NCBI GenBank assembly: GCA_028710985.1
Contig: JAQTTB010000001.1
Location: 457,864-521,863 of the forward strand
Source: Patescibacteria group bacterium
GTDB taxonomy: Bacteria > Patescibacteriota > Patescibacteriia > JAHJFT01
Direction: 5' to 3'
Length of the DNA stretch: 64,000 nt
The notes beneath the pieces were generated by a model. That model made no database searches. It had not been told where the DNA came from and saw only the letters and a program-made list of their open reading frames with translations. How positions within the stretch are numbered: the first letter of the stretch is position 1; every line of letters starts with the position of its first letter. Shown one piece after another: positions 16,744-54,896 of this stretch. Both the position numbers and the translations under genes were made by a program.

Positions 16744-16747
16744 ATTT

Positions 16748-27961: not shown

Positions 27962-30004
27962 ATGAAGGTTGTGCATTTCGTCGCGCTCATCGCGGCCATG
28001 ATTCTCATCTGCGGCTGCGAAACCCGCTACGACATGGAGGAGAGTCCATCCGACGAGGGAGGTCCGGCCGGCGAACGCCGTCTGCCCTTCCTTCCGAACA
28101 CCACGGTCACGGTCTCGCAGGGGAATGACCAGGCCGATCCGGCGAGTACGCACTATCGCTTGGGCGCGCTCGCCAAAGCCGTGGACTTTACGGCCGGACC
28201 CGGCTGCGAAGATCGGGGAGTGCCGATTATCGCGGCCGCCGGCGGCACGGTGATTGAAGCGGTTGCCGGCTTAGCCGACCGGTCCGGAACCGGCACCGGC
28301 AATCATGTCTACGTCCGCTACTCCGACGGCCGCGTTGGCCGTTATTTTCATCTTCGCGACGTCATGGTGCGCCGCGGCCAGCCGGTTCTTGAGGGCCAGG
28401 CGCTCGGCACCATGGGCACGAGCGGTTACTCAACCGCGTGCCACCTGCATTATGACGAGGTGGCCGACGGCTCGTCGCAGACCCTGCCGCTGAACTTTCT
28501 GGAATCCGACGGCGTGCCGCAGGAAGGCCGTTCGTACTCATCCCGCAACACCGGTCCGTACGACCGCGCCTACTGGTCAGCCGGCGGCCCCTCCATGCTC
28601 GGCGAGCCGAGCGAAGAGGCGCGCTGGTACGATTCATACGCGCGCTGCGCGGACGATGACGGCGACGCGGATTTGCTCTGCGACAATGAATCCGCGCATC
28701 GCGCCAATATTCACATTCTGCCGTTTGAGGGTGGCCTGGTCGGCCGCGCCGCACTGGTCTACGACGCTCTGCGCGGCGCGCGCGAAGCGGTCATAATTCA
28801 TGGCCGTCTGTACGATTGGTATATGGCGAGCCACGGTCCGGCATCGCCATTCATCGCGCCCCTGAACAACGAATACGTTGATTCGGCCGGCGACACGCGG
28901 CAAGACGGCATCGGAGGATATCTCTCCTGGGACGGCGCGAACGCGAGCTTTCATGCCTGGCCGGATGATGCCGCACCCGGTGAGATTGCCGGGCCATCGG
29001 CGTGGAATCGGCTCGCGAGCTATGCCGTGGTTGAAGCGTATAACGCGCTTGGCCGCGAAACGCTGGCCGGCGAACCGGTTGCTCAATTCGGTAATCCGGC
29101 CGAACTGCATCTCTGGAGCGGATATCGTTATCTAGTGCAGGACTTTAACGGCGGTCCGCACGGCTGGTTCGTGATTTTCTACGATTCCGAGAATTATGCT
29201 TACGGCGGCGCAAATCGCGCCATCTCGGTCATGGACCAGTTCTGGGGATATTACATCACCCATGACGGCGAGCGCCATTTCGGCGCGCCGATCTCGGCCG
29301 CCTACATCGATTCCGCAAGCGGCAAGCGCCGCATGGATTGGGAGAGCGGATTCTGCCTTCTCGCCCAAGGCGAAGCGGTTGAGCAGGGAACAATGTCCGC
29401 GGCTCCGGTGCCCGGATATTTACCCAATGCGAGCATCTGCCAGATTTCCGGCGGCACAACACCGCCTGAACCCGAACCCCATGATCCCGATAACGACGTC
29501 GACGGCTACACCATTGCTGAAGGCGATTGCGATGACACAAATCCGCTCATTAATCCCGACGCGGTTGAGATTTGCGACGACGGCCGCGACAACGACTGTG
29601 TCTGGGGAGTGGACTGCGACGATCCGAATTGCGCCGACGATCCGCATTGCGCGACCCCGCCCATGCCGGTTGATCGTCTTGTGGTGCGCTACACCGCGCC
29701 GGCCGCATTTTCCGGAACCATCATCTACTCCGACTGGAGCGGATACTCGGCCGGCGGCACTCTGCGCGCGCCGTGGGCCGAACGCTGCCGCGCCGCAAGC
29801 GGCTCGTCCCTTGAGTGCGAGCTTGATCAGCCCGCCGGCACCTTTGCGGTTTTCAACATCCAGTACGGTTCATCCTGGGCCTGCGCCAACTGGCCGGCGA
29901 GCACGGGCGGAACGATCAGCCTCACCTGGCGGGGCATCTCTTACTCCGCGATTCCCGAAGCCAATGGTTCAGGCGGCTGCAATTTTCGCGTCAGTCTTTA
30001 CTAG
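27962..30004 (+). CDS. M23-family (LytM-like) peptidase lipoprotein with C-terminal myxobacterial-type Cys-rich metal-binding repeat
   Basis: GNHVYVRYSDGRVGRYFHL...GTSGYSTACHLHYDE (M23 HxxxD/HxH motifs); later DPDNDVDGYTIAEGDCDDTNPLINPDAVEICDDGRDNDC; very GC-rich. Confidence 0.75.
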   Translation: MKVVHFVALIAAMILICGCETRYDMEESPSDEGGPAGERRLPFLPNTTVTVSQGNDQADPASTHYRLGALAKAVDFTAGPGCEDRGVPIIAAAGGTVIEAVAGLADRSGTGTGNHVYVRYSDGRVGRYFHLRDVMVRRGQPVLEGQALGTMGTSGYSTACHLHYDEVADGSSQTLPLNFLESDGVPQEGRSYSSRNTGPYDRAYWSAGGPSMLGEPSEEARWYDSYARCADDDGDADLLCDNESAHRANIHILPFEGGLVGRAALVYDALRGAREAVIIHGRLYDWYMASHGPASPFIAPLNNEYVDSAGDTRQDGIGGYLSWDGANASFHAWPDDAAPGEIAGPSAWNRLASYAVVEAYNALGRETLAGEPVAQFGNPAELHLWSGYRYLVQDFNGGPHGWFVIFYDSENYAYGGANRAISVMDQFWGYYITHDGERHFGAPISAAYIDSASGKRRMDWESGFCLLAQGEAVEQGTMSAAPVPGYLPNASICQISGGTTPPEPEPHDPDNDVDGYTIAEGDCDDTNPLINPDAVEICDDGRDNDCVWGVDCDDPNCADDPHCATPPMPVDRLVVRYTAPAAFSGTIIYSDWSGYSAGGTLRAPWAERCRAASGSSLECELDQPAGTFAVFNIQYGSSWACANWPASTGGTISLTWRGISYSAIPEANGSGGCNFRVSLY

Positions 30005-38698: not shown

Positions 38699-38709
38699 AA
38701 GAATTTTCT

Positions 38710-40521
38710 ATGGACGCACTGACCACAACCCGCTATCTTCCGAGATCGGTAAAAACATATTTGGGTTCGGCTGAAGTGACGGATATCAATATTGATATCA
38801 AAAAAAAGTTTGATTTGCGGGAAAGGGAACTTGATATTCTCTTTGAACTCACCTGGGATATTCTGGAAGGTCGCCGCGCGCCGCGCGCCCTGGCTTACGA
38901 GCTCAAGGCGCAGATAAAATGGCAGGAAAAAAAAGCCGCTGAAGTTGCGCTGGAAATCCTTGGACGAAAACTTTTGCCCCTTTCCAATCTTATCCCCGGC
39001 ATTCCGGAAGCGATTAAAGATCTCGGCGCTGATCCGGCCAAGTATCCGCAGAAAAAAATCACGTCCGATCAGACGACCCTGCCGGTTTTTGTGGATGAGA
39101 TGATCCGCGATCTCGGCATCCAGCTCGCCGACAAATTTTTGAAACACCGGCTTGAGAATGTTGCCGAAGCAAAAATCAAAGGAGTGCGTGATGATTTTGA
39201 AACAAAAGAAAGAATGGTCCGTGGAATAAAAATCGGTGGGCTCGAGCTCGCCCCGACACAGGCTGACCAAATTATCGCCTACATCGAATCTGCGAAGAAA
39301 ACCATACAAATCGTTGACCGCCCATCCGCTCCGACAGCGGTTGGGGGAACGGCTCCAGCCGTAGCGATTCCGCTGTCAAGGATGCCGGCCGAGTCCGAAG
39401 TGCCGGAAGAAATCACGAGACATGAAACCGGAACCGCCGCGCCTTTCGCCATGCGCCCCGAGGATGTCGCTGAAATCCACGCCGAGCGGGGCCGGGAAAT
39501 CTCGGATGCCGTTTTGCCGGAGTACGAACGAGTAGATAAAGATATTATAAAAGATTCAGGATTCAGTTTTTCCGATCCGGATATGCAAAAGCGTTTTGAA
39601 AACACGGTTCGCGCGCGCGTGCGTGATGTGCGCGACGAACTGGAGACAAAAAATATACTGACCCGCGGGCCCAAAGAGGGCGGACTCGGCTTGCCTAAAG
39701 AAAAATCCGACCGCCTCATCGCTCTCATCAATCAAAAAGTCGGACCCCTTCGCCTGAAACTCGCGAAAATCGAAGAGCAAAAAAAGGCTGAACATCTCGT
39801 GAGAGAAAAACGAAATCGGGAAATCGGCCGCGAGAGGGAAGAGGAGAACTTGAATCGCCGCTACGCCAAACTTACCGGACGAATGCCGAGCTCGATGCCC
39901 AGTGAAGAAAAAAAACCGGAACGAACCCTGCCCTTAAAAGACCATATTATTAAGCCGAGCGCTCCGGTGATAAAACCGGTCGCCCAAGTTTCGGTCGTGA
40001 CAGCCGTGATTCCGCAAGAGCCGGGATTACCGATGACGATTGTGCCGGTCCCGATCGCGATCGGGACGCCGGTCCGCCCGGCATCTCGTCCGGAATCGCT
40101 AAAGCCCAAGGTTCGCGTCTCGCCGCCGAGTATTCCGGCGCAGACGTCGCAAACCGGCCGGCCGCGCGTTGAAGAAATAAAGTTTTCGCGCAGGCTGTTC
40201 GGGCCGATTGAGGAATTGCGCGAAATGAAGTTTGAAGATTTTCGCCGCCTGTCGCGCGAACCGCGGGAACGCGCCATTAAGATAAAGGACAAGATAGATC
40301 TCCTGGGCGAAGAATCATTTGAGAAAAAAATGCAGGGCATCGCCGCGTGGCAAGAGAGCCCGATTAATAAACTGTATCTGAATTTAATACAGGAAGCGTT
40401 CCAGACCGGCAAGAACATTGAGACAATTACGCGCGAACGTGAAGCCGCCGGCCGTTCGACGCTTTCATGGGACGAATTCCAGTCAATTATTGAGCTAAAT
40501 CAAAATTTAGGTAAAATTTAA
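38710..40521 (+). CDS. Hypothetical charged/helical protein (603 aa) within the T4SS-like operon
   Basis: No TM; K/E/R-rich. Confidence 0.45.
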   Translation: MDALTTTRYLPRSVKTYLGSAEVTDINIDIKKKFDLRERELDILFELTWDILEGRRAPRALAYELKAQIKWQEKKAAEVALEILGRKLLPLSNLIPGIPEAIKDLGADPAKYPQKKITSDQTTLPVFVDEMIRDLGIQLADKFLKHRLENVAEAKIKGVRDDFETKERMVRGIKIGGLELAPTQADQIIAYIESAKKTIQIVDRPSAPTAVGGTAPAVAIPLSRMPAESEVPEEITRHETGTAAPFAMRPEDVAEIHAERGREISDAVLPEYERVDKDIIKDSGFSFSDPDMQKRFENTVRARVRDVRDELETKNILTRGPKEGGLGLPKEKSDRLIALINQKVGPLRLKLAKIEEQKKAEHLVREKRNREIGREREEENLNRRYAKLTGRMPSSMPSEEKKPERTLPLKDHIIKPSAPVIKPVAQVSVVTAVIPQEPGLPMTIVPVPIAIGTPVRPASRPESLKPKVRVSPPSIPAQTSQTGRPRVEEIKFSRRLFGPIEELREMKFEDFRRLSREPRERAIKIKDKIDLLGEESFEKKMQGIAAWQESPINKLYLNLIQEAFQTGKNIETITREREAAGRSTLSWDEFQSIIELNQNLGKI

Positions 40522-40961
40522 TGCCGGAAAAATTTGTAGTGCCGCAATTCATTGACGTGGAAGATAAGATATTTGGGCCGATCACGACTCGCCAGTTTGT
40601 AATTTTGCTCGTGGATGGATTGTTCGTTTTTATCGCGTTTAAATTATTGGAGAAGATTTTATTCATTCCGGCGGCTATTTTGCTCCTCGGAGCCGGCGGC
40701 TTGCTTGCTTTTATAAAAGTGAACGGCATGCCATTTCATTTTTTTCTTCTGAACATCATTCAGACAATGAAGCGTCCGTCTCTCCGCGTTTGGGATAAAA
40801 CGCCTAGCAACACCGAACTGCGCGCGTACATCAGCAAGCCTGAAGTCAAAGCCGCGCCCGTTCCTCCCAAGAAAGAGCCATTAACAACAAGCCGCCTGTC
40901 CGAACTTTCGCTCATCGTTAATACAGGCGGTTTATACAAACCCGAAGAATATGAGCACTAA
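40521..40961 (+). CDS. PrgI/VirB3-like small membrane protein
   Basis: MPEKFVVPQFIDVEDKIFGPITTRQFVILLVDGLFVFIAF... matches the PrgI-family N-terminal pattern; sits immediately upstream of VirB4. Confidence 0.45.
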   Translation: MPEKFVVPQFIDVEDKIFGPITTRQFVILLVDGLFVFIAFKLLEKILFIPAAILLLGAGGLLAFIKVNGMPFHFFLLNIIQTMKRPSLRVWDKTPSNTELRAYISKPEVKAAPVPPKKEPLTTSRLSELSLIVNTGGLYKPEEYEH

Positions 40962-41622
40962 AAAAATTGTCAGACCCGGCCAACCAACTCAGCGTTACAT
41001 GGACATCGCAGAAATCCGCGAGGATGTGGTGATAATGAAGGACGGCACACTGCGCGCCGTTATTCTGGTCTCAAGTATCAATTTCGCGCTGAAGTCGGTG
41101 GATGAGCAGGAGGCGATTATTTCCGCCTACATGCAGCTTTTGAATTCGCTAGAACATCCTTTGCAGATTGTAATTCAGTCGCGTCGTATGAATATTGAAA
41201 AATATCTTGACGCCCTGAAGGAAGAGGAAAAAAATCAGAAAAACGATCTTTTGAGCGCGCAGATTTCCGATTATCGCAGTTTTATCAACCAGTTGGTTGA
41301 GCTTGGCGAGATCATGAGCAAGAAATTTTTTGTTACCGTGCCGTACGACCCAATGTCGGATAAGCAGAGAGGTTTTTTCTCGCGGATAAAAGAAATTTTT
41401 TCACCAGCCGTAAGTCTCAAATTGAGCGGCCAGAAATTTATTGAGCGCCGCAAGGAGTTGATGATGCGGGTGGAGCATATCATAGGCGCCCTACAGAGTA
41501 TCGGGCTCACCACCGCGCTTCTTGATACCCAGAGTTTGATTGAACTTTATTACAGTGTTTACAATCCCGAAGTTTACGAAAGCCAGAAGGTCAAGGATTT
41601 AAGCAAAATACAAATAGAATAA
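40951..41622 (+). CDS. VirB4/TraC-family ATPase, N-terminal segment encoded as a separate ORF
   Basis: QRYMDIAEIREDVVIMKDGTLRAVILVSSINFALKSVDEQEAIISAYMQLLNSL aligns by pattern with the VirB4 N-terminus (LPY...VLLEDGS...DGV.FEL); ends with a TAATAA double stop. Confidence 0.6.
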   Translation: MSTKKIVRPGQPTQRYMDIAEIREDVVIMKDGTLRAVILVSSINFALKSVDEQEAIISAYMQLLNSLEHPLQIVIQSRRMNIEKYLDALKEEEKNQKNDLLSAQISDYRSFINQLVELGEIMSKKFFVTVPYDPMSDKQRGFFSRIKEIFSPAVSLKLSGQKFIERRKELMMRVEHIIGALQSIGLTTALLDTQSLIELYYSVYNPEVYESQKVKDLSKIQIE

Positions 41623-41626
41623 TAAT

Positions 41627-43579
41627 ATGCCATTCCGACCAAAAGAAGCCGTTGCTCCTGAAGCCAAAACCGGCGCGGTTGCGCCGACCGGCCGCATCGT
41701 GCGGCGCGAGGCCGAGGCGCGCGCCGAGGCCGAGCGAGAACGCATCGTACTTGAAGAAGAGCGCATTTATCGCCGCGGTGTTGTTTCCATCCGCGACCTG
41801 ATCGCGCCGGCCGCTTTTGAAGTAAAACCGAACTATCTCCGGCTCGGCGACAGCTTTTGCCGCACGATTTTTATTGTCACTTATCCGCGCTATGTTTCGG
41901 TTGGATGGGCGACGCCGGTTATCAACTATAATCACACCCTGGATATCGCCATGTTTTTCTATCCAGTCAAGGCGCCGATAATTTTAAAACAGCTCAAGAA
42001 TAAAGTCGGCGTTCTGGAGGCCCAGATCATGGCCGATTCGGAAAAAGGCGCTCCTCGCGATCCGATTCGCGAAACCGCACTCCGCGACATTGAACAGCTT
42101 CGCGACGACCTGACGCAGGGGATTGAGCATTTTTTTCAATTCGCTTTGTACATTACGATTTACGCGAAAGATGTTACGGAACTGGATAAGATATCAACCG
42201 ATATCGAAACCATCTTCGGTTCAAAATTGATTTATTCCAAGCGCGTTCTTTATCAGTCCGAGCAGGGCTTTAATTCCACTGTGCCGCTCGCGAACGACGA
42301 GCTCATGATTACCTTCAATATGAACACCTCGCCGATTGCTTCGTCGTTCCCGTTCACTTCGGCCGAGCTTACTTCGGACAACGGCATACTCTACGGAATA
42401 AACCGCCACAACAACAGCCTGATTCTCTTTGACCGTTTCTCCATGCCGAACGCCAACATGGTTGTTTTTGCCACTTCCGGCGCCGGCAAGAGTTATGCCG
42501 TAAAACTGGAAATCTTGCGCAGCCTGATGCTTGGCACGGATGTTCTCGTCATTGATCCGGAAATGGAATACAAGCACCTTTCCGACGCGGTCGGCGGCAC
42601 CTACATCAATATTTCCCTGGCTTCGGAAAGCAAGATTAATCCGTTCGATCTGCCGCGGCCCATGGGCGAGGATATCAGCACCGAGGATATTATCCGGAGC
42701 GCCGTAATTACTCTCAAGGGTTTGCTCCGCATCATGCTCGGCAAGCTCACTACGGCCGAGGATTCGCTTTTGGATCGCGCGCTTCTTGAAACCTATGCTA
42801 AGCGCGATATTACGCCAAGTTCCGATCTTTCTACCGTCGAGCCGCCGATTATGCAGGATTTGCAGGAAGTGCTCGAGGGCATGGAAGGTACCGGCGATTT
42901 GGTTGTCCGGCTCAAGAAATTCACTGACGGCACATTTGCCGGTCTCTTGAACTCGCCGACCACGGTCACTATGAAAGCCCAGCTCGTGGTCTTCAGCGTG
43001 CGCGATCTTGAGGACGAGCTCCGTCCGATTGCTATCTATACCATCATCAACTACATTTGGAATGTCGTGCGCTCGGAGAGCAAAAAACGCATTCTCACGA
43101 TTGACGAAGCCTGGTGGCTGATGATGCACGAGGACAGCGCAAAATTTATTTTCGCCTTGGTCAAACGCTGCCGGAAATACTATCTCGGCATTACCACCAT
43201 CACGCAGGATGTTAACGATTTTTTGTCCAATCCGTACGGCCGCTCTATTGTCACTAACTCCTCAATGCAGATTCTGATGAAACAGTCGCCGGCCGCGGTT
43301 GATTTGGTGCAAAAAACTTTTCTTCTCACCGAGGGGGAGAAATATCTTCTTCTTGAGTCCGCGGTCGGAGAGGGGATTTTCTTCGCCGGCACAAAGCACG
43401 CGGCGATCAAGGTGGTTGCTTCGTATACCGAGGACCAGCTCATTACCACCGACCCGCGCCAGCTCTTGGAAATAGAAGAATCAAAAAAGCAATTCGCCGA
43501 AGAGGTGCTCGGTCAGTCCGAAGCCCTGCCTGCCGGTAGGCAGGGCGCTTCCGGGGAACCCCCAGCAATAAATATCTAA
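41627..43579 (+). CDS. VirB4/TraC-family type IV secretion ATPase (middle and ATPase domains)
   Basis: IAPAAFEVKPNYLRLGDSFCRTIFIVTYPRYVSVGW; Walker A FATSGAGKS; Walker B ILTIDEAWWLM; C-terminus carries the palindrome insert (EALPAGRQGAS). Confidence 0.8.
   Translation: MPFRPKEAVAPEAKTGAVAPTGRIVRREAEARAEAERERIVLEEERIYRRGVVSIRDLIAPAAFEVKPNYLRLGDSFCRTIFIVTYPRYVSVGWATPVINYNHTLDIAMFFYPVKAPIILKQLKNKVGVLEAQIMADSEKGAPRDPIRETALRDIEQLRDDLTQGIEHFFQFALYITIYAKDVTELDKISTDIETIFGSKLIYSKRVLYQSEQGFNSTVPLANDELMITFNMNTSPIASSFPFTSAELTSDNGILYGINRHNNSLILFDRFSMPNANMVVFATSGAGKSYAVKLEILRSLMLGTDVLVIDPEMEYKHLSDAVGGTYINISLASESKINPFDLPRPMGEDISTEDIIRSAVITLKGLLRIMLGKLTTAEDSLLDRALLETYAKRDITPSSDLSTVEPPIMQDLQEVLEGMEGTGDLVVRLKKFTDGTFAGLLNSPTTVTMKAQLVVFSVRDLEDELRPIAIYTIINYIWNVVRSESKKRILTIDEAWWLMMHEDSAKFIFALVKRCRKYYLGITTITQDVNDFLSNPYGRSIVTNSSMQILMKQSPAAVDLVQKTFLLTEGEKYLLLESAVGEGIFFAGTKHAAIKVVASYTEDQLITTDPRQLLEIEESKKQFAEEVLGQSEALPAGRQGASGEPPAINI
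43526..43545. repeat. Palindrome-family copy 3, CCTGCCTGCCGGTAGGCAGG, in-frame inside the VirB4 CDS
   Basis: Read directly; the same 24-mer is present in the clpC-like gene in the same gene-relative orientation. Confidence 0.9.
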
Positions 43580-44194
43580 ATGACAAAAACGATAAAAATT
43601 ATTTTAATCGCGCTCGCTGGGGTGATGTTGCTTGCCGGCATAATGTTTTTGATTTGGGCACTCATGACGCGGCCGGCCGTAATTTTCAAACCCGCGCCGG
43701 CTCAGCCTGCCGCCGAAACTACGGAGCCCCTGCCGACCGGCGGTTCGGTTATGGTTCCAGTGAGTACGACAACGCAAGAGGTTTCCGGAATTCCGTTTGA
43801 AGTCAGTACTTCGGCCGAAGCGGAAAAACAGGCCGCCAAAAATCTTTGCATTCTTTTCGCCGAGCGGTTCGGAAGTTTCTCGAACCAGGGAAGCTACGAA
43901 AACATCACGGATTTGTTGTCGGTCATGACGCCGTCCATGCGCGTCTGGGCCGAAAATTATGTTTCCAAGAATGCGTCCGCGGCTCCGGCTGAATACTACG
44001 GAGTAAGCACCAAGGTTGTTGCCAATACTTTTAATAGCTATGATGCGGCGCAGGGCAACGCCGTGATGACTCTCGATACCCAGCGCCGCGAAATGCGCGC
44101 TTCGGTCGAAGATCGGATTTATTATCAGGCCATCAGAATTTCGCTTAAGAAAATTGACGGCGCGTGGCTCGTCGACAGCGCATCATGGCAATAA
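43580..44194 (+). CDS. Membrane-anchored hypothetical protein
   Basis: N-terminal TM helix, 204 aa. Confidence 0.45.
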   Translation: MTKTIKIILIALAGVMLLAGIMFLIWALMTRPAVIFKPAPAQPAAETTEPLPTGGSVMVPVSTTTQEVSGIPFEVSTSAEAEKQAAKNLCILFAERFGSFSNQGSYENITDLLSVMTPSMRVWAENYVSKNASAAPAEYYGVSTKVVANTFNSYDAAQGNAVMTLDTQRREMRASVEDRIYYQAIRISLKKIDGAWLVDSASWQ

Positions 44195-44844
44195 AAGATT
44201 TTTTACTCGATTTAATATTTCCAAAGTTCTGCCTGCAGTGCGGGCGGGAAGGCACCATGCTTTGCGCCGAGTGCGTTTCGGCGATTGATCCGCAATGGGA
44301 TCCCCTTGATTTTGAAAATCAAAAGGAGGTATTAATAGGTCGTTTAATCAGCCTTGGGTACTACCGCGAAAAAATTTGGCAGCGTATTATTCAAAATCTA
44401 AAATATCAATACGTAACTGAGCTTGAAAGCGCGCTGGAAAATCTCGTCGGCCGGTTTATACAAAAATATCCTGAATCTATCGGCGTGCCCTATGATTATC
44501 TTGTTCCCGTGCCGTTGCACCGTAAAAGACTGCTTGAACGCGGATTTAATCAGGCGGAAATAATTGCCCGCTTAATTGGAAAAAATACCGGTTGGCCGCT
44601 TGAAAGCGAAAATCTATACCGAAAAAAGAACACCGCGCCGCAGGCCCAGCTCGAAGATGAAAAAAGAAAGGCGAATTTAGTCGGCGCATTCGGCGTCCGG
44701 AATCCGGAGCGGTTTGAAAATAAGAAAATTTTGCTTATTGATGATGTATATACCACGGGTTCAACTATAAAAGAATGCGCCAGTACCCTTCTCGCCGCCG
44801 GCGCGGCCGAAGTCGGAGCCTGGGTCGTCGCCCGCCGCACTTAG
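44164..44844 (+). CDS. ComF-family protein (double zinc ribbon + phosphoribosyltransferase domain)
   Basis: CLQCGREGTMLCAECV...; C-terminal LLIDDVYTTGSTIKECASTLLAAGA PRTase motif. Confidence 0.7.
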   Translation: MARRQRIMAIKDFLLDLIFPKFCLQCGREGTMLCAECVSAIDPQWDPLDFENQKEVLIGRLISLGYYREKIWQRIIQNLKYQYVTELESALENLVGRFIQKYPESIGVPYDYLVPVPLHRKRLLERGFNQAEIIARLIGKNTGWPLESENLYRKKNTAPQAQLEDEKRKANLVGAFGVRNPERFENKKILLIDDVYTTGSTIKECASTLLAAGAAEVGAWVVARRT

Positions 44845-44909: not shown

Positions 44910-44999
44910 GGAAGGGTGGCAGAGCGGACGATTGCACCGGTCTTGAAAACCGGAGTCCCTTCACGGGGACCGTGAGTTCGAATCTCACCCCTTCCGCCA
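44910..44999 (+). tRNA. tRNA-Ser (anticodon TGA), class II, CCA encoded
   Basis: Acceptor GGAAGGG/CCCTTCC; anticodon arm CCGGT-CTTGAAA-ACCGG; long variable arm; T arm GTGAG-TTCGAAT-CTCAC. Confidence 0.85.
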
Positions 45000-45014
45000 T
45001 TCTGTAGACTATTC

Positions 45015-45110
45015 GGAGAGGTGGCCGAGAGGCTGAAGGCGGCGGTTTGCTAAACCGTTATACGTGGTTTTTGCCGCGTATCGAGGGTTCGAATCCCTCC
45101 CTCTCCGCCA
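45015..45110 (+). tRNA. tRNA-Ser (anticodon GCT), class II, CCA encoded
   Basis: Acceptor GGAGAGG/CCTCTCC; anticodon loop TTGCTAA; long variable arm; T arm GAGGG-TTCGAAT-CCCTC. Confidence 0.85.
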
Positions 45111-45136
45111 ATTTATAAAATTCAAATCCAGACAAT

Positions 45137-45610
45137 ATGCCGGAAATTACTAAAATCACCCACGAAGTGCCGGAATTTATCAAACACGAAAGATCGCTTC
45201 TTTGGTATATTGTTGCATTTCTGATTGCCGGCGGGCTGGTCACTTATGCTATTCTCAGCGGGAACTTTTTATTCGCCGTTATTGTTGTTCTCATCGGCGT
45301 GATTATTGTCTTGACTTCGTTCCGCGAACCGCGTAAGCTGAGTTTCGAGATCGATCCAATGGGAGTGGCTGTCGGAGGCAAGAGATATAAATTTACGGAT
45401 TTTAAGGATTTTTCCATCATTTACAATCCGCCGGAAACCAATACGCTGTATCTAGAATTTCGCATGCCTCTGCGCGAGCGGCTTTCGGTGCAGCTCGGTG
45501 ATATGGATCCGAACGAAGTGCGGGAATATTTAATGAATTTTTTGAAAGAAGATCTGGAACGTGAGCAGGAATCACTGAGTGATATCTTAAGCCGTTTATT
45601 GAAATTTTAA
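45137..45610 (+). CDS. Hypothetical membrane protein (2 TM) between tRNA genes
   Basis: 157-aa ORF. Confidence 0.4.
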   Translation: MPEITKITHEVPEFIKHERSLLWYIVAFLIAGGLVTYAILSGNFLFAVIVVLIGVIIVLTSFREPRKLSFEIDPMGVAVGGKRYKFTDFKDFSIIYNPPETNTLYLEFRMPLRERLSVQLGDMDPNEVREYLMNFLKEDLEREQESLSDILSRLLKF

Positions 45611-45611
45611 T

Positions 45612-45689
45612 GCGCCCGTAGCTCAGCTTGGATAGAGCGCAACCCTGCGGAGGTTGAGGCCAGACGTTCAAATCGTCTCGGGCGCACCA
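45612..45689 (+). tRNA. tRNA-Arg (anticodon GCG), CCA encoded
   Basis: Acceptor GCGCCCG/CGGGCGC; anticodon arm CAACC-CTGCGGA-GGTTG; T arm AGACG-TTCAAAT-CGTCT. Confidence 0.85.
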
Positions 45690-47775: not shown

Positions 47776-47798
47776 CGGCGAGTGCGCCGGTTTTTTTT
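47776..47798. terminator. Bidirectional terminator between convergent recG and the minus-strand operon
   Basis: AAAAAA-CGGCG-agtg-CGCCG-G-TTTTTTTT. Confidence 0.6.
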
Positions 47799-47806
47799 AT
47801 TTGTTT

Positions 47807-49276
47807 TTATCGATATAAATCCGGGTTCGCCAGGATTTCGTGCGCGTAAACCGGACAATTTTTTACCCAGCCGGATTTTAGATAGCCGATAAGAGATGAC
47901 TTGACCCTGACCGAACGGGCGGTATGATTATTCACCGTGATTGCCGGCGGGCCCCCGCCCATTTCGATGATCTCCTTGCCGGAAATTCCGGTATAATTTA
48001 TCGCATGTCCACAATTGCCATCCAGCCAGATAAAAGTTCCGGCGCTCAACGAAATTTTTTTATTTTCAAGGTCGTTCGCCATATCCTCGGCGCGAGAATA
48101 ATAATATTTTGCCTTTGACTGGTTAGTCTTATCGGGCAGGGGGTTAATATCAGCAATGCACTTATACAGAGTGCGGGTGAATGTTAAACAATCGCCGCAA
48201 TAAATGCTGCCCAGGCTTTGGGCCCAGCTGCGATAGGCGTCTATATCGCCGTTCCATTCTTCAAAGCCATTCTTCGCTAGTTTTTTATTATAATAATTGT
48301 CCGCCGCCGGTGCGGTGCAGGCGCCGGATTTCATGGTGCCGCCGCCGACATAGACAACTTTTTTTGGCAGCGCCGAGGACCAGGCATCAATAACTTTTTT
48401 TAAATTCGCGGCGTAATTTGCTGGATAGCTCTTGTCTTCCGGACATGCCTTCATCATATCGGCGTAAGAAACAAATCCGCCAGCCGCCGGAATTGCTGCA
48501 ATCGTTGCGTCATAGGACGACGAGTCATCTGCTCCGCCGAAGTATCCTTCGTCAAATGTTATCTCTTCGCGACCGATGATTGCGAGCCTCAGTGAATTAA
48601 AACTCACCAGATCTGGGTTTATTAGATTCAAAAGCGTGTATGAGCCGAGCGCAAGCACTAGCCCCATTGCCGCGCCGATAATAGATTTTTTGGCTTCGCT
48701 GATTTTTCCGGAATCGCCGGCCGCCGTCACCCAGCGGAATCCGCCGTACATGATCATTGTAATCGCAAGAATTGTCGCCACGCCGACCATATATCGATAT
48801 ACAGCGGCAATGTATTCGGCAAGCCAAGGGACGGAGACGAATTTTTGTCCGCCGACGTCGCTCACCATGAGTTTGCTAAATTGGATATTGAAGTCCGGAA
48901 TCTGCAGGGACGGTTCAATCGCCGAAAACGGAACGCCCTGGGTGATGCTTCCGCCAGTGCCGAACGCGCCGCTCGTTCCCGTTACTCCATAGCATTCGTC
49001 GCCCGGTTTTTCGTTCCAGTCAATATAACCGTCATCGCAATGCACCGCTTTCCAGGAAACGCTCGAAGTGGTGCGAGAAGCGCAGTAGATGTCGCATTGA
49101 GTTTTAGTCTCGACGTCTTCACCTGTCGTTTCGTCTTCTTCGGTATGATGTTCGCAGACATTGTTTGACCCAAGGCACCAGCAATGATCGCAGTCTACGG
49201 CTAAAACCGTCGACGGCATGAAAACAAAAATAAGCAGAAATAAAACTGCAGTTATTTTTTTATTCATGCGCATCAT
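47807..49276 (-). CDS. Secreted protein with Cys-rich N-domain, central two-helix hydrophobic (VirB2/TrbC-pilin-like) core and C-terminal papain-like (CHAP/NlpC-P60-like Cys...His) region
   Basis: Signal peptide; CDHCWC...; VGVATILAITMIMYGGFRWVTAAGDSGKISEAKKSIIGAAMGLVLALGSY; later IYCGDC ... GNCGHAINYTG. Confidence 0.45.
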   Translation of the reverse strand: MMRMNKKITAVLFLLIFVFMPSTVLAVDCDHCWCLGSNNVCEHHTEEDETTGEDVETKTQCDIYCASRTTSSVSWKAVHCDDGYIDWNEKPGDECYGVTGTSGAFGTGGSITQGVPFSAIEPSLQIPDFNIQFSKLMVSDVGGQKFVSVPWLAEYIAAVYRYMVGVATILAITMIMYGGFRWVTAAGDSGKISEAKKSIIGAAMGLVLALGSYTLLNLINPDLVSFNSLRLAIIGREEITFDEGYFGGADDSSSYDATIAAIPAAGGFVSYADMMKACPEDKSYPANYAANLKKVIDAWSSALPKKVVYVGGGTMKSGACTAPAADNYYNKKLAKNGFEEWNGDIDAYRSWAQSLGSIYCGDCLTFTRTLYKCIADINPLPDKTNQSKAKYYYSRAEDMANDLENKKISLSAGTFIWLDGNCGHAINYTGISGKEIIEMGGGPPAITVNNHTARSVRVKSSLIGYLKSGWVKNCPVYAHEILANPDLYR

Positions 49277-50494
49277 TTATTTTAGTCTCATCTTATTCAG
49301 ACGGCTGGTTGCCTGGTCAACGTAGAACAGATATTTGCCGTCTGAAGAAAGTGTAATCTGTTTTATGGTTGAAGCGTCTTCCGGCTTGCCCACGGTTGTT
49401 TTGCGGCCCGAGGCAAGGTCGATTTTATAAATCGTATCCGGAATGCCGTTCGCGAGGTCGCGCTGGAGTCCAGCGCCTTCAGGAAGATAGTCCGGCACCG
49501 CGCAGTATGCCGTGGAATTGTCGGCGAAAGTGCATTTATCCGCCCAGGTATTGACTTTCAGGGATTTTCGGTTCGCGCCGATATTCTCTCCGGAAGCGTC
49601 AACGACCCAAAGCACGGGATTATAATTGCTGTCCATATTGTACGCGTTGTACACCATTCGTTCGCCGGTTGGAGACCATTCATAGTCAAACCCCCAGCCT
49701 TCAATCACGAGCCCTGGAAAATTTTCATTATTTTTTCCGACCAGGAGCACCTGCTGGCGGTTGATGCCCATGGCTTCGCCAGTTCGCGAGGTAGCGATGA
49801 TTTGGTTATTTGGCGACCACTTTACCTGTACCTTGTCGCCGTTATTGCCGAGCGGTTCAATGGCTTCGGCGTCGGAGCCGTCCTTATTTGCCACGATGAG
49901 CCAGCGATTTTCCTCATCCAGGCCCATGCTTTTCGCCACGATTTTGTCTCCCTGCGGAGAAAAATCAAAATCCTCCCAGTGCTTGGGCAGGGTGATCTGT
50001 TTCTTGCTCTGAAGATCGTAAAGAATATTTGAGCCGTCCGGATATTCCAGAATCGCGCTCGCGCTGTCGCCGGACCAGTTCACTTTTTCCACATTATAAA
50101 AAGTCTGGGAGGAAAGCGACTGTACCGTGCCGTCGGGGAGCACTTTATTAAGCCGTCCGTTCGTCGGATCGTAGAAATTCATTCCCTGTCCGTCGCCGGA
50201 GAGCGCGGCGCTGGAGACGCTGACTGTTGGTGTGAGATTCTCAACCTGCGTGATTCCGCCGGAAGCAATTGGGGAGGCGGTTGGCAAAACCGGCGTCACT
50301 CCTTCAGTAACTTCGGTAGTCGGAGTTCCGAGGCCGGCTTCAGGAAGCTCGCTGGTCGGCGTCACTTCTTCTACGGTGGTAATTTCCAGAGTTTCGGCTG
50401 GCTTAAAGAAAAAATAATAAACTCCATATCCGGCCGCCGCGGCCGCGGCGATGAAAAGAATTATTATCAATATTTTTTTTAAATCAAATCGCAT
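49277..50494 (-). CDS. TolB-like beta-propeller (PD40-repeat) protein, N-terminal membrane anchor
   Basis: Repeated ...SPDG/SPTG...IVA/MVY... propeller-blade pattern. Confidence 0.5.
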   Translation of the reverse strand: MRFDLKKILIIILFIAAAAAAGYGVYYFFFKPAETLEITTVEEVTPTSELPEAGLGTPTTEVTEGVTPVLPTASPIASGGITQVENLTPTVSVSSAALSGDGQGMNFYDPTNGRLNKVLPDGTVQSLSSQTFYNVEKVNWSGDSASAILEYPDGSNILYDLQSKKQITLPKHWEDFDFSPQGDKIVAKSMGLDEENRWLIVANKDGSDAEAIEPLGNNGDKVQVKWSPNNQIIATSRTGEAMGINRQQVLLVGKNNENFPGLVIEGWGFDYEWSPTGERMVYNAYNMDSNYNPVLWVVDASGENIGANRKSLKVNTWADKCTFADNSTAYCAVPDYLPEGAGLQRDLANGIPDTIYKIDLASGRKTTVGKPEDASTIKQITLSSDGKYLFYVDQATSRLNKMRLK

Positions 50495-50529
50495 AATTTC
50501 TAAAAATAATTTTTTATTCCGGCGCTCCG

Positions 50530-51585
50530 TTAGCCGCCGAAGGCGCTTTTGATCGGATCAACGATGTCCGGACCCAAAAGCTTTACCAGGTCGCTGATCA
50601 TTGCGACCGCGTCGCCCGGAGCGGCGATTGCGAAAATAATAAATCCGATTATCGTGAGCGGCAGGCCCCATTGGATAAACCAGTTTATAAACAAATTGCC
50701 GATCACCGCGAAAAGAATCAGCACTTCGGGAAACGAAAGAGGAGTGACCTGATAGCCAAAAAATTTTGTTTTCTTGTTTGAAACGATGCCGCTCGGATCG
50801 CCGTTGCCGATAATATTCCCGAGAATATAATCTTTGATATATGAAAGCAGGGTATAAAAAATTCCGATAATCGCCCCGGCGGCACCGCCGCGCAGCAAGT
50901 CTTTAAATTTTTTGGCGGTATCCAGAGCGCGCTTGGCCTGCGCCATCGCGACATCCGCTTTTTCCGGAGTGACGGCCTTGGCAAGCGCTGATTGCATGCG
51001 TCCGGCGGCAAATTTCTGAACCCTTCCCATTACATCGCCGCCCGCGCCGCCGCCACCAATTTTGCCAAGCTCTCCGCCCAGCCCGCCGATTGCTTTTTCG
51101 GTTTGCTGGAGCGTGCTGCCAAGAGAGGAGAGCTGCCCGCCGCCCTTTTTGGCCACTCGTCCGCCGGCCGCGGCTGCTTTGCCTCCGGCCTGCGCCGCGA
51201 TTCCGGCGCCTTCGGCCGCGGCTCCGCCGCCGACCATAAGTCCGCCGGCCGCCATCATGGGCACGCCCGCTAATGCGCCGAGCCCGGTTGAGCTGGCAGC
51301 GGCGCCGGCCCTCGCGATTCCCATGCCCGTGGTGCGCGCCGCTTCTCCGCCGGCTTGCAATGCCTTGCCGCCGGCCTGGGCCGCCTGGCCGCCAACCTCG
51401 GCCGCGGTTCCAGCCGCTTGGATGCCTTTTCCGGCAACTTTTGCTCCGCCAGCCGCGACTTTGGCGACTCGTTCGGCTTTTTGAATTTTTTCCGCCGGGC
51501 TTTCCTGCCTCATTCTTGCCCGGCTGCGCGCCGCGGCAAACTGCATTGCCATTTCCTCTTGTTCCGGCGTTAATTCCTCCGCCAT
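50530..51585 (-). CDS. Gly/Ala-rich repetitive protein with C-terminal multi-TM region
   Basis: AGGKA/AQAGG-type repeats through the first ~230 aa, then a hydrophobic C-terminus; GC-rich repetitive DNA. Confidence 0.4.
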   Translation of the reverse strand: MAEELTPEQEEMAMQFAAARSRARMRQESPAEKIQKAERVAKVAAGGAKVAGKGIQAAGTAAEVGGQAAQAGGKALQAGGEAARTTGMGIARAGAAASSTGLGALAGVPMMAAGGLMVGGGAAAEGAGIAAQAGGKAAAAGGRVAKKGGGQLSSLGSTLQQTEKAIGGLGGELGKIGGGGAGGDVMGRVQKFAAGRMQSALAKAVTPEKADVAMAQAKRALDTAKKFKDLLRGGAAGAIIGIFYTLLSYIKDYILGNIIGNGDPSGIVSNKKTKFFGYQVTPLSFPEVLILFAVIGNLFINWFIQWGLPLTIIGFIIFAIAAPGDAVAMISDLVKLLGPDIVDPIKSAFGG

Positions 51586-51594
51586 ATTATTGGA

Positions 51595-54162
51595 TTAATC
51601 GCTTATGCTTGCGGAAAAACTGAACTTTCCCCGCGATAAGCTGACTTTAACCGTATCTCCTTTGTTTATTTTACCATTTAAAACCATTTCGGACAAAGGA
51701 TTTTCCACCAAGTTTAGCAGAGTTTTCCGGACGGCGCGCGCGCCCTGCCTACCGGCAGGCAGGCCGTCGCCGGCGTCAATGCAGCGGTCCGCGAGCGCCG
51801 GCACGATATTGAAGTTAAATTTAATACGCACGCCGCGGCTTTCCGCGCCAACGGCGATTTGATTAAGTTCTTTCTTTATGATGCTTTCAAGCGCCGTTCG
51901 ATCCAGGGAATTAAAGTAAATAATTGCGTCGAGCCGGTTTAGCAGTTCGGGCCGGATGCAGTCCTTGAGCCGGGCGTCCAAATCCTTTTTCAGATCGTCG
52001 AATTTCATCATTTCCCCATCTGGCCCGCTAAAGCCGATGCGGCCGGTTCCGGCGTCATAGCCAGCGTTTGAAGTAAGGATGATGACAGTATTTTTGAAAT
52101 TGATTTTCCGGCCGCTCGCATCGGTAATTTCGCCTCGGTCAAGAATCTGGAGCAGGAGAGCCTGCACATCGGCGTGGGCTTTATCAAATTCGTCAAAAAG
52201 AACCACGGCATAGGGTTTTTTCCTGACCTCGTCGGTGAATTTATTCCTTTCCTTGTATCCGATATAGCCGGCCGGCGAGCCCAGGAGCTTGGATGCCGAA
52301 TAGGATTCTTTGTATTCTGACATATTAATAAGCACGAGCGCGTCTTCGCGCGGATATATTTTTGCCGCGAGCGTGCGCGCGAGCTCGGTCTTGCCCACGC
52401 CGGTCGGTCCGACAAATAGAAAAGAGGCGAGTGGCCGCGTCGGATCCGAAAATCCGGCCTTGGCGCGGGAAAGCGCGGCGACAAGCTCGTCAATCGCCCG
52501 GTCCTGGCCGATGATGGTCTGGCTAAGCGCGTTTTTTAATTCAAAAAACTTCTGATCGCCGCTCGTGAGTTCCTGAGCCGGAATGCCAAGCTGCCGGGAT
52601 ATTACTTCCATAATGTGGCGGTCGGTGAGCTTGCCGTAGGATAGATTATTGCCTTCAGCCTCCTGCCGCGCGGTAATTACCGCGCGTTCAAGTTCTTTTT
52701 CTTTTGTCTTGAGGTCAATCGCTTCGGAATAGCGCTCGTCCAAAACCGCCCGCTGTTTAAGTTCGCGGACTTTATTAAATTCGTTTTCCAGCGCGCGGAT
52801 GCGGACAAGCCGCGGGTCAGCCGGCTGGGAAATTTTTATTCCGGACGCCGCTTCGTCAACGAGATCAATCGCTTTATCCGGCAAAAATTTATCGGAGAGA
52901 TAGCGCGTTGAAAGTTCAACTGCCGCGCGGATTGCTTGGTTGCTGATTTTAATTCGGTGAAATTTTTCATAATTCGGTCGGATTCCTTCAAGGATGTGCA
53001 CGGTCTCTTCCTTGCTCGGTTCGCGCACCACGATAGTTTGAAAACGTCGTTCAAGCGCCGGGTCGGATTCAATATGTTTTTTATATTCATCCAGTGTGGT
53101 CGCGCCGATGCACCGCAGTTCGCCGCGCGCGAGGGCCGGTTTCAGAATATTGGCCGCGTCAAGCGAGCCGGCGGTTGAGCCCGCGCCGATGATATTGTGC
53201 ACCTCGTCAATAAAAACAATCAGATTCTTATCGTTGCGGATTTCCTCAATAATCTGTTTGAGTCGCGATTCAAATTCGCCGCGGTACATGGTGCCGGCGA
53301 CGATGAGCGAAAGATCCAGGGCCAGAATTTTTTTGTCGGCAAGTTCGTCCGGCACTTCACCGAGCGTGATTCGTTTCGCGAGTCCCTCAACAATCGCGGT
53401 CTTGCCCACGCCCGGCTCGCCGATCAAAAGAGGATTATTCTTGTGTCTCCGGCAGAGAATCTGCATCAGCCGGACAATCTCATCCTGGCGTCCGATTAGG
53501 GGATCGATTTTTTTCTGCATTTCCGGAGATGTGAGATCAATGGAAAAAAAATCAAGCGCCGGAGTTTTTGATTTATCGGTTTGCCGGTAGGCAGAGTGCG
53601 CGTCCAGTCCGAGTTCTTCATCCACGACTTCCGCGTCAATCGGTTCGGCGGGCAATGCGCCGATGCCCGGCGCTTCGCCGCGGTCCGCAATTTCGGTAAA
53701 GCGGGACGCCATTTTCAGAATATTCTCAATCTGGTTTTTCAGTTTCGCAAGATCGACATGCTGCGCTTTGAGTTCGCGGATTATTGCCGCATCCCGGATC
53801 TCCATGAGACCGAAAAGAAGATGCTCGGTGCCCACGTACTTGTGCGAGAAAAGATTTGCCGCCAGCACCGCTTTTTCAATCGCTCGTTTTGCGTCCGGCG
53901 AAAGAGTCGGCGTGGGATTTTTTATTTTGGTTGCCGTGTCGCCCGGATTTTCGGAAGAAATATTTTTCCGTTGTCCGGCCGAGGGCCTGAAGTTCGTTTT
54001 GTTGATGATTTCATGAGCGATTGATCCGCGCTGTCCGGCAAGCGCGTTCATGAGCCCGAGCGGTTCAATATTTTTTTGATAATTCAAAATCGCGGCCTCC
54101 ATCGCTCGCGCGAGAACCTGTTTCAAATTTGTAGAAAATTTATCCAAGATGTCAATTTCCAT
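51595..54162 (-). CDS. Clp/Hsp100-family ATPase, ClpC-like (two Clp_N repeats, two AAA+ modules, short UVR-like middle region)
   Basis: LIGEPGVGKTAIVEGLA (Walker A1), LIVFIDEVH, FLFVGPTGVGKTELARTLA (Walker A2); about 330 aa between the two Walker A motifs; C-terminus carries the palindrome insert (GLPAGRQGARA). Confidence 0.85.
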   Translation of the reverse strand: MEIDILDKFSTNLKQVLARAMEAAILNYQKNIEPLGLMNALAGQRGSIAHEIINKTNFRPSAGQRKNISSENPGDTATKIKNPTPTLSPDAKRAIEKAVLAANLFSHKYVGTEHLLFGLMEIRDAAIIRELKAQHVDLAKLKNQIENILKMASRFTEIADRGEAPGIGALPAEPIDAEVVDEELGLDAHSAYRQTDKSKTPALDFFSIDLTSPEMQKKIDPLIGRQDEIVRLMQILCRRHKNNPLLIGEPGVGKTAIVEGLAKRITLGEVPDELADKKILALDLSLIVAGTMYRGEFESRLKQIIEEIRNDKNLIVFIDEVHNIIGAGSTAGSLDAANILKPALARGELRCIGATTLDEYKKHIESDPALERRFQTIVVREPSKEETVHILEGIRPNYEKFHRIKISNQAIRAAVELSTRYLSDKFLPDKAIDLVDEAASGIKISQPADPRLVRIRALENEFNKVRELKQRAVLDERYSEAIDLKTKEKELERAVITARQEAEGNNLSYGKLTDRHIMEVISRQLGIPAQELTSGDQKFFELKNALSQTIIGQDRAIDELVAALSRAKAGFSDPTRPLASFLFVGPTGVGKTELARTLAAKIYPREDALVLINMSEYKESYSASKLLGSPAGYIGYKERNKFTDEVRKKPYAVVLFDEFDKAHADVQALLLQILDRGEITDASGRKINFKNTVIILTSNAGYDAGTGRIGFSGPDGEMMKFDDLKKDLDARLKDCIRPELLNRLDAIIYFNSLDRTALESIIKKELNQIAVGAESRGVRIKFNFNIVPALADRCIDAGDGLPAGRQGARAVRKTLLNLVENPLSEMVLNGKINKGDTVKVSLSRGKFSFSASISD
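51744..51763. repeat. Palindrome-family copy 4, CCTGCCTACCGGCAGGCAGG on + (CCTGCCTGCCGGTAGGCAGG in gene sense), in-frame inside the clpC-like CDS
   Basis: Read directly. Confidence 0.9.
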
Positions 54163-54180
54163 ATTCGGCTGGAGATATAA

Positions 54181-54208
54181 TAAGGGTAGAAGAATTCTCC
54201 TACCCTTA
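54181..54208. terminator. Hairpin TAAGGGTAG-N10-CTACCCTTA between lemA (upstream on the minus strand) and the clpC-like start
   Basis: Read directly; loop contains GAATTC. Confidence 0.4.
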
Positions 54209-54225
54209 TTGTTGGTTTTGAAATG

Positions 54226-54777
54226 TTAAAATTTCACTTCCGGAGTTTCACGCTCCATGGCTTCAATCTCAAAGAATTGGTAATTCTTGAAGCCCAGCAT
54301 CCCAGCAATCATGTTAGTCGGAAATACTTGGATCTTGGTGTTGAAGTCGCGGACATTGCCGTTATAAAAGCGGCGCGATGCCTGCACTTTGTTTTCCGTG
54401 TCCGTGAGGTCTTCCTGCAGTTTGGTAAAATTTTCCGAAGCGCGGAGCTGGGGATAGTTTTCCGCCACGGCGAACAATGTTTTCAAGGTCGCGGAGAGCG
54501 CATTTTCCGCCTTGGCCGCCTCTTCCGGGGTCTTGGCGCCCATTGCCGCGCTGCGAGCAGCTGTTACATTTTCAAAAAGCTGTTTTTCATGGCCCGCGTA
54601 GCCCTTTACGGTTTCCACCAGGTTGGGGATAAGGTCGTGCCGGCGTTTGAGCTGGACATCGATGTCCGACCAGGCTTCATCTGTGCGATTTTTGAGCGTA
54701 ATCAGGCCATTATAGGTGCCGATGAACCACAGGGCGACGACCGCAAGTACGCCAAGCAGAATGTAGACTATAATCAT
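54226..54777 (-). CDS. lemA: LemA-family protein
   Basis: N-terminal TM helix; LITLKNRTDEAWSDIDVQLKRRHDLIPNLVETVKGYAGHEKQLFENV. Confidence 0.8.
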   Translation of the reverse strand: MIIVYILLGVLAVVALWFIGTYNGLITLKNRTDEAWSDIDVQLKRRHDLIPNLVETVKGYAGHEKQLFENVTAARSAAMGAKTPEEAAKAENALSATLKTLFAVAENYPQLRASENFTKLQEDLTDTENKVQASRRFYNGNVRDFNTKIQVFPTNMIAGMLGFKNYQFFEIEAMERETPEVKF

Positions 54778-54816: not shown

Positions 54817-54896
54817 GCCGGTTTGTATTATTTATTAATAAATTATACAATTAGATTGTAGATAAAATTTGCTAATTTGTAAAGGAATTTTTTTGT

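Follow-up and report, generated by a model that had tools for sequence, protein, structure and literature searches.

Much of uncultured bacterial diversity belongs to the Patescibacteria. Their type IV secretion systems (T4SSs) are MPF_FATA-like, and VirB1 is scarce among them (Quinonero-Coronel et al. 2025, PMC12102498). VirB2-like pilins (PF18895) are found in 1948 assemblies, most Patescibacteria with such pilins lacking VirB1, and ABY1 T4SS loci typically contain comF, recG and radA (PMC12102498). A Saccharibacterium requires its pilin arrays for epibiotic growth (Wang et al. 2023, PMC10633639). Among systems of this kind, only the T4SS and pilin arrays of Patescibacteria have been shown to be essential for growth, and they seem to lack the wall-breaching enzyme VirB1 (PMC10633639, PMC12102498). 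Here we describe three adjacent minus-strand genes within a stretch of 64,000 nucleotides from a Patescibacteria group bacterium (contig JAQTTB010000001.1, positions 457,864 to 521,863), hereafter called the window. They are gene A (47807-49276, 489 amino acids; the NCBI entry for the identical protein is named 'pilin'), gene B (49277-50494, 405 amino acids) and gene C (50530-51585, 351 amino acids). A first-pass annotation of the DNA had singled out these three open reading frames (ORFs), and the ORF list bears out their positions and sizes. We consider it likely that A is an extracytoplasmic wall hydrolase of the NlpC/P60 type, anchored by a pilin hairpin and belonging to a conserved fusion family partnered with B, and that C is co-transcribed with the upstream genes for ClpC and LemA, all three being envelope genes.

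With the VirB2/TrbC-like pilins of Patescibacteria (PF18895), A shares two hydrophobic helices, a short basic loop, a secretion signal and a Pfam match above threshold. As for these pilins, its gene lies within about five genes of an MPF_FATA-like virB4, in an ABY1-type locus with comF and recG. However, A is far longer (489 compared to roughly 100-150 amino acids), adding a Cys-rich N-domain and an enzyme domain, and its gene belongs to a separate convergent operon, where it is coupled to a beta-propeller gene and not to virB3/virB4. VirB1-type hydrolases of Gram-positive bacteria, with which A was compared by description only (PrgK of pCF10, TraG of pIP501 and CD419/TrsG; via PMC12102498), are likewise membrane-anchored and extracytoplasmic, carry a clan-CA Cys/His domain (CHAP or NlpC/P60) and have a monoderm-type VirB4 nearby. 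These hydrolases possess a single N-terminal transmembrane (TM) anchor, usually an SLT or LytM domain as well, and are encoded inside the T4SS operon, whereas A has a pilin-hairpin anchor and one divergent NlpC/P60-like domain and is encoded outside it. With the NlpC/P60 endopeptidases (PF00877; MepS/Spr, CwlO, SagA, RipB, Acd24020) A shares the predicted fold, and its GDC...GH...E parallels their DCSG...GHVGIY...H. It differs from them in remaining under the Pfam threshold, in an extra N-terminal helical subdomain (about residues 270-355) and in six to seven Cys, including a CxxC at the nucleophile. Term searches of the literature at hand gave no account of pilin-hydrolase fusions or of a propeller partner, an absence that is no proof of novelty.

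Domain architecture of protein A

The centre of A is a T4SS_pilin hairpin of two hydrophobic helices with a Lys-rich loop (residues 150-219; 48620-48829, minus strand). Residues 151-217 match the Pfam family PF18895 with 34.3 bits (E 2.5e-8), covering profile positions 4-69 of 71; the gathering cutoff is 26.6 bits, and 13 of 14 relatives of A match the family too. The VirB2/TrbC-like pilin core, which the first-pass annotation had claimed by pattern, is therefore backed by a curated threshold. The hairpin matches the NCBIfam model 'Mbov_0395 pilin-like' of a Mycoplasma integrative and conjugative element under the cutoff of that model, and the signal for TrbC/VirB2 (PF04956) is weak, at best 0.0012 in relatives. 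An AlphaFold2 (AF2) model of A from 14 sequences (mean predicted local distance difference test, pLDDT, 67.6) gives two long helices at 150-184 and 189-219 (pLDDT about 70-75), joined by the Lys-rich loop AAGDSGKISEAKK. Given the hairpin match at E 2.5e-8 and homologues of all three proteins in the same order elsewhere, chance does not account for the locus.

A starts with a Sec-type signal peptide (residues 1-26, MMRMNKKITAVLFLLIFVFMPSTVLA; 49199-49276, minus strand), recognised by a hydrophobic segment at 6-30 and a model helix at 5-18, with a cleavage site predicted from the sequence. The following N-domain (residues 27-100; 48977-49198, minus strand) contains eight Cys, is modelled with a pLDDT of about 80-88 and is conserved in close relatives only. 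VirB2-type pilins before assembly adopt a topology with the basic loop inside the cell. With the Lys-rich basic loop of A placed in the cytoplasm in the same way, both the N- and the C-domain would be extracytoplasmic. The total of 15 Cys in A, together with DsbA neighbours in relatives, is consistent with extracytoplasmic flanking domains.

The C-terminal part (residues 265-489; 47810-48484, minus strand) is a divergent NlpC/P60-type papain-like domain and a predicted peptidoglycan endopeptidase. In an alignment of 14 sequences reaching down to 25% identity, G361-D362-C363, H424 and E438-M439-G440-G441 are among the invariant residues. Cys363 (codon 48188-48190, minus strand), the predicted nucleophile in the GDC motif, sits at the N-terminus of helix 363-375; His424 (codon 48005-48007, minus strand), the predicted catalytic His of the GH motif, sits at the start of strand 424-431. 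A third polar residue about 10-14 positions after the His may be provided by the next strand (434-439), on which alignment and model place E435, near-invariant, and E438, invariant (EIIE of EIIEMGG; codons 47963-47974, minus strand); their role is putative. This placement of Cys, His and Glu is the NlpC/P60 arrangement (BCE_2878, CwlO, SagA and RipB). The modelled domain has a papain-like alpha+beta fold, the closest folds being all cell-wall endopeptidases.

At this locus in other genomes, two pilin fusions (L036:6096-7754 and L071:11882-12970) pass the NLPC_P60 threshold. When the C-domain of A was aligned to these with hhalign (E 4.6e-4), GDC and GH fell in register with DCSG and GHVWIYIG, Cys363 aligning with the Cys and His424 with the His of these motifs. 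Escherichia coli MepS gave a weak hhalign match of 26 columns at the His motif GRHVGIYIG (E 0.07), and phmmer with the same sequence against 64 fusions found no match; both results are suggestive only. An HMMER search of the full library of representatives with residues 226-489 returned eight relatives only and no bridge to annotated families, and the PHROGs contain no match for A or B. The strings quoted in the first-pass annotation, MIMYGGFRWVTAAGDSGKISEAKKSIIGAAMGLVLAL, IYCGDC and GNCGHAINY, are all present in the sequence, and its papain-like Cys...His pair stands as an NlpC/P60-type pair with invariant C363 and H424. Its allusion to CHAP does not, since neither A nor 13 relatives matched CHAP (PF05257) at E<=1. 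As there is no CHAP match, and none to PF00877 at threshold, we call the domain divergent NlpC/P60-type, neither a certified PF00877 member nor CHAP. It carries Cys363, His424 and Glu435/438 and would most likely cleave peptidoglycan stem peptides.

The propeller B and its swappable neighbours

Protein B is modelled by AF2 (pLDDT 87.7) as a TM helix (residues 5-30), a disordered linker (31-80) and a closed, seven-bladed beta-propeller (84-403), whose best structural matches are the propellers of S9 peptidases and oligogalacturonate lyases. In profile searches it reaches 15.9 bits for PD40 (cutoff 20.9), the signal for Tricorn_2nd is also weak, and neither phmmer with B nor a B profile of 38 sequences found a significant match in the PDB. 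On the basis of the model, B is a TM-anchored propeller of the S9-peptidase/Tricorn type. TolB is a soluble periplasmic protein with a six-bladed propeller and an N-terminal alpha/beta domain, encoded in a tol-pal operon. The first-pass annotation had called B a membrane-anchored PD40/TolB-like propeller; the anchored propeller is as described, and the TolB label is too specific. TolB is ruled out by seven blades instead of six, by a TM helix and a linker of 50 residues in place of the N-domain, and by the lack of tol and pal genes nearby. B shares an extracytoplasmic propeller with TolB/PD40, S9 peptidase and Tricorn proteins but has neither Pal/Tol partners nor an attached peptidase domain. 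On the whole, the pattern-based calls that annotation made on A and B were largely right.

B has more than 2100 homologues, with 44-52% identity across genomes labelled Uhrbacteria, Falkowbacteria and Magasanikbacteria, and its relatives occur in at least 531 species among the GTDB species representatives. With B as a probe, we fetched 80 loci from these representatives and searched their ORFs with profiles. The recurring order is PGM on the minus strand, then LemA-HtpX-ClpC-X-B-DsbA-pilin protein(s)-RadA, convergent with RecG. Close relatives show LemA-(HtpX)-ClpC-C-B-A, convergent with recG and followed by ComF and VirB4, some with an added pilin-SLT fusion. Counting loci with enough sequence, 49 of 54 have a pilin-domain gene in the orientation of B and no more than 8 kb downstream of it, 29 of 50 have ClpC upstream of B, and beyond RecG there is ComF in 8 of 29 and VirB4 in 5 of 20. 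There is one pilin-domain gene in 36 loci, two in 12 and four in one. DsbA is adjacent in most loci, usually between the propeller and the fusion.

The pilin proteins of these loci number 64, of which 56 match T4SS_pilin in Pfam. Their further Pfam domains are VanY (11/64), Peptidase_M15 (9/64), Amidase_2 (6/64), Peptidase_C39_2 (4/64), Peptidase_M23 and SLT (3/64 each) and NLPC_P60 (2/64). In L088 and L089, two close relatives with 61-67% identity in B, the gene directly next to B encodes an A-like N-domain and hairpin (52-57% identity) followed by Peptidase_C39_2 as C-terminus. An A-like N-terminal half with another enzyme in the same slot means that the C-terminal enzyme is exchanged as a module while the part with the pilin hairpin is conserved. 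The family of fusions between a pilin hairpin and an interchangeable wall hydrolase is widespread in the sampled ABY1-type lineages.

Additional fusions in tandem follow the A orthologue in some loci, such as a pilin-SLT protein of 436 amino acids (L002:13755-15065), and four pilin-domain genes are found in L018; these tandems bring to mind the arrays of pilins reported for other classes of Patescibacteria. The genome of the window itself encodes a second pilin-domain protein (P0019, 592 amino acids) with a Dickkopf/EB-like Cys-rich tail. It lies on another contig piece directly 3' of a DsbA gene (L086:2543-5107), reproducing the DsbA-pilin pairing found beside the propeller in other lineages.

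Proposed wall hydrolysis and the neighbouring T4SS

An MPF_FATA-like T4SS operon occupies 36236-44194 on the plus strand. Its products are a polytopic protein of 820 amino acids with a long soluble tail, a charged, E/K/R-rich protein of 603 amino acids, a protein of 146 amino acids with two TM segments, a TrsD-like protein of 223 amino acids, VirB4 and a TM-anchored protein of 204 amino acids; VirB6, VirB3 and VirB8 identities were assigned by protein shape only. The VirB4 gene (41627-43579, plus strand) lies 4.2 kb from the locus and matches the NCBIfam CD1110 family with 328 bits (cutoff 325). The pilin hidden Markov model, run over the whole window, found no pilin besides A, and the genes of the T4SS operon gave no match to a wall-hydrolase family. 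A role of A in the T4SS draws support from this lack of a pilin or hydrolase gene in the operon, together with the reported lack of VirB1 in most Patescibacteria with VirB2-like pilins (PMC12102498). The layout of the window matches the published picture of ABY1 T4SS loci (PMC12102498). ComF follows the T4SS operon (stretch 36236-44844, plus strand).

According to our favoured explanation, A would be exported via Sec to the envelope, where the VirB2/TrbC-like hairpin would be embedded in the membrane, its Lys-rich loop facing the cytoplasm. Outside the cell A would display two disulfide-rich domains, the N-domain with its eight Cys and the divergent NlpC/P60-type cysteine peptidase. B, whose gene is followed directly by the fusion gene at a conserved place in the chromosome, would be a likely scaffold or regulator; coupling of the two is supported by the B stop abutting the A start. 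Local wall hydrolysis by A could then serve the neighbouring VirB1-less T4SS. Of this picture, the domain identities, the logic of the topology, the conserved order of the genes and the swapping of domains are shown, and the enzyme activity, the pairing of A with B and the service to the T4SS are inferred. Fusions of a pilin hairpin with swappable hydrolases beside a conserved propeller are a concrete and testable candidate for the missing wall-breaching function. With Cys363 and His424 as predicted catalytic residues, they provide defined proteins for biochemistry and for searches for host-interaction factors.

Several findings weigh against this explanation. A Pfam search of A (E<=1) gave no NLPC_P60 match, and relatives of A yielded two such matches at E<=0.03, both under threshold, that of P0007 reaching 16.6 bits against a cutoff of 23. 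Foldseek of the A model against the PDB returned helical-hairpin noise only, with all E>1, and in PDB searches neither phmmer with A nor a profile of its C-domain (11 sequences) found a hydrolase or any significant match. Cys363 is part of a CxxC (C360, C363) with C373 nearby and could be locked in a disulfide. With bulky domains on either side of the hairpin, A is unlike any characterised pilin. The gene order is conserved within one clade and may reflect inheritance, not function. VirB4 occurs near the locus in only 5 of 20 related loci, which makes the link to the T4SS plausible but unproven and advises caution on a T4SS role. The first-pass annotation had suggested, from proximity to the VirB4/VirB6 operon, that the locus supplies missing T4SS functions; the fusions track the propeller, DsbA and ClpC rather than VirB4, and the suggestion keeps its standing as an inference.

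Some of these findings would also fit a papain-like C-domain that does not act on peptidoglycan, being instead a protease or transglutaminase-like processor of secreted proteins, in the manner of C39-type peptidases, or a catalytically dead binding module. We regard this as very improbable. The missing NLPC_P60 match at threshold and the CxxC and further conserved Cys near the nucleophile speak for it. Peptidase_C39_2, a family best known for peptide processing, can occupy orthologous slots. Yet Cys, His and Glu are invariant, the nearest folds are those of wall endopeptidases, and the sister fusions bear unambiguous wall enzymes (Amidase_2, VanY, M23, SLT).

A further alternative accepts the hydrolase and detaches it from the T4SS. 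The locus would then be a housekeeping envelope module. In it a hairpin that descends from pilins would do no more than anchor the protein, the hydrolase would reshape the wall of its own cell in growth, division or turnover under a propeller that controls or places it, and LemA, HtpX, ClpC and DsbA would ensure quality control and folding of envelope proteins. The association of the fusions with the propeller (49/54), in most cases across an intervening DsbA gene, and with ClpC (29/50) is in keeping with such a module, as are the lower counts for VirB4 and ComF (8/29). In the window, moreover, A and VirB4 are in different, convergent operons, and conservation of B far exceeds that of the T4SS-type parts. 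However, amidase, DD-carboxypeptidase, endopeptidases and lytic transglycosylase replace each other at one slot among close relatives, which is unusual for a dedicated housekeeping step, and such polymorphic enzyme modules argue against a purely housekeeping role. The anchor, besides, is specifically a T4SS_pilin, and recG, radA and comF are typical of ABY1 T4SS loci (PMC12102498). Taken together, we think a housekeeping module rather unlikely. Even if the T4SS link fails, the locus would represent an autolysin-plus-propeller module of minimal cells that is widely conserved and has not been described before.

The hairpin lies in the pilin family by Pfam threshold, which also accords with a bolder idea. 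A-type proteins would be major or minor subunits polymerised by the T4SS into an enzyme-armed pilus, with the N- and C-terminal domains on the outer face of the filament and the hydrolase digesting the wall of a host or prey cell to which the epibiont attaches. In solved conjugative pili (F and T pilus) both termini face outward, as this idea needs. Swappable, polymorphic hydrolases resemble target-tuned weapons or endolysins, and epibiotic growth of Saccharibacteria depends on pilin arrays (PMC10633639). On the other hand, about 100 residues before and 270 after the hairpin would be sterically demanding on each subunit, and the gene of A is located outside the T4SS operon; we hold an armed pilus to be quite improbable. 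At the same low level of likelihood we place a related speculation, in which an ABY1-type VirB2-like pilin has turned into a carrier of swappable hydrolases. If assembled by a relaxase-less T4SS, with the propeller as docking or assembly factor, it could form an enzyme-decorated pilus or base that drills peptidoglycan, possibly that of the host. If true, the 'missing VirB1' would find an explanation, and so would the fact that pilins of these epibionts are essential and hypervariable. Our preference remains with the membrane-anchored wall hydrolase partnered with B.

Probable operon, gene C and further genes of the window

Directly upstream of C, as the first-pass annotation had it, is a gene for a double AAA+ unfoldase of the ClpC/ClpB class (51595-54162, minus strand; Pfam Clp_N, AAA, AAA_lid_9, AAA_2 and ClpB_D2-small); matches of its product to ClpB, ClpA and ClpV all remain under cutoff. 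The strand block begins with a LemA-family gene (54226-54777, minus strand), which has PF04011 LemA at the orthologous position in relatives. The TAA of B abuts the ATG of A, the C-B gap is 35 nucleotides and the ClpC-C gap nine nucleotides. LemA-ClpC-C-B-A probably form one operon of five genes. A promoter-like -35/-10 site 5' of LemA (TTTACA-17-TACAAT; 54855-54883, minus strand) agrees with the consensus at 10 of 12 positions; since such sites are no more numerous in the region than expected from shuffled sequence, it only suggests the operon start. At the other end, the gap of 46 nucleotides that separates the stops of recG (47760) and A (47807) contains a bidirectional hairpin resembling an intrinsic terminator (47776-47789, both strands; CGGCG-AGTG-CGCCG, loop of four nucleotides). 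It lies 17 nucleotides from the A stop, has T-runs on either strand and is shared with the convergent recG, just as first described.

The block resembles LemA-HtpX(M48)-Clp neighbourhoods of envelope stress and quality control in that LemA and a ClpC/ClpB AAA+ gene stand at its head. In relatives (L001-L005, L006-L085) an HtpX-like M48 peptidase gene lies between LemA and ClpC; the window has only a gap of 63 nucleotides there (54162-54226), so that HtpX has been lost from its locus. In the window the tie of LemA and Clp to the hydrolase and propeller genes is positional only.

Gene C (50530-51585, minus strand) encodes a conserved N-terminus of 25 residues, variable GGxAxxA heptads (about residues 40-150) and, towards the C-terminus, a membrane module that is again conserved and includes a TM hairpin (about 286-331). 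Its product is rich in Ala and Gly (A+G 37%), and the heptads appear in the DNA as a periodicity of 21 nucleotides. We found three database homologues only, no Pfam, NCBIfam or PDB match (including phmmer against the PDB) and a single match in the PHROGs, to a family of unknown function. In an alignment with the orthologues of L088 and L089, conservation covers the first 25 residues and, at the C-terminus, a module about 150 residues long (KDYxLGNxxxNGDPxG ... VTPLSFPEV plus the TM hairpin). The Gly/Ala heptad region grows and shrinks among close relatives, with proteins of 351, 327, 296 and 216 amino acids, and is nearly absent in the shortest (50530-51585 of the window compared to L088:4874-5764 and L089:5091-5741). 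In more distant genomes, proteins of 171-1082 amino acids that look unrelated fill the slot between ClpC and B, 27 of the 28 examined ending in a hydrophobic hairpin. A jackhmmer search from C reached its own clade, L018 and L040 only and no other 'X' protein of this slot, and BLASTP of C against X proteins of 886 and 1027 amino acids gave no match. C represents the lineage-specific form of a membrane protein that is variable, tail-anchored and always located between ClpC and the propeller. The first-pass description of C as Gly/Ala-rich with C-terminal TM segments is accurate; its proposal of a channel is not borne out, the repeats being a variable linker that one orthologue has almost deleted. 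An identity as a VirB6-like channel was rejected on the C-terminal TM hairpin, compared to at least five TM helices, and on the missing match to VirB6 or PrgH profiles.

Between ComF and recG (stretch 44910-45689, plus strand), genes for tRNA-Ser(TGA), tRNA-Ser(GCT) and tRNA-Arg(GCG) flank a conserved ORF of 157 amino acids (45137-45610). It contains a hydrophobic segment of 47 residues, enough for two TM helices, and an ORF of the same size is found at the same place in L001-L003. Elsewhere in the window, a giant ORF of 2988 amino acids (16616-25582, plus strand), whose sole Pfam signal is CBM_4_9, may encode a large surface or adhesion protein. Another wall hydrolase is encoded at 27962-30004 (plus strand) as a protein of 680 amino acids with Peptidase_M23 and a MopE-like metal-binding motif; its gene falls within the segment of the window with the highest GC content (0.63 compared to about 0.50), possibly of foreign composition.

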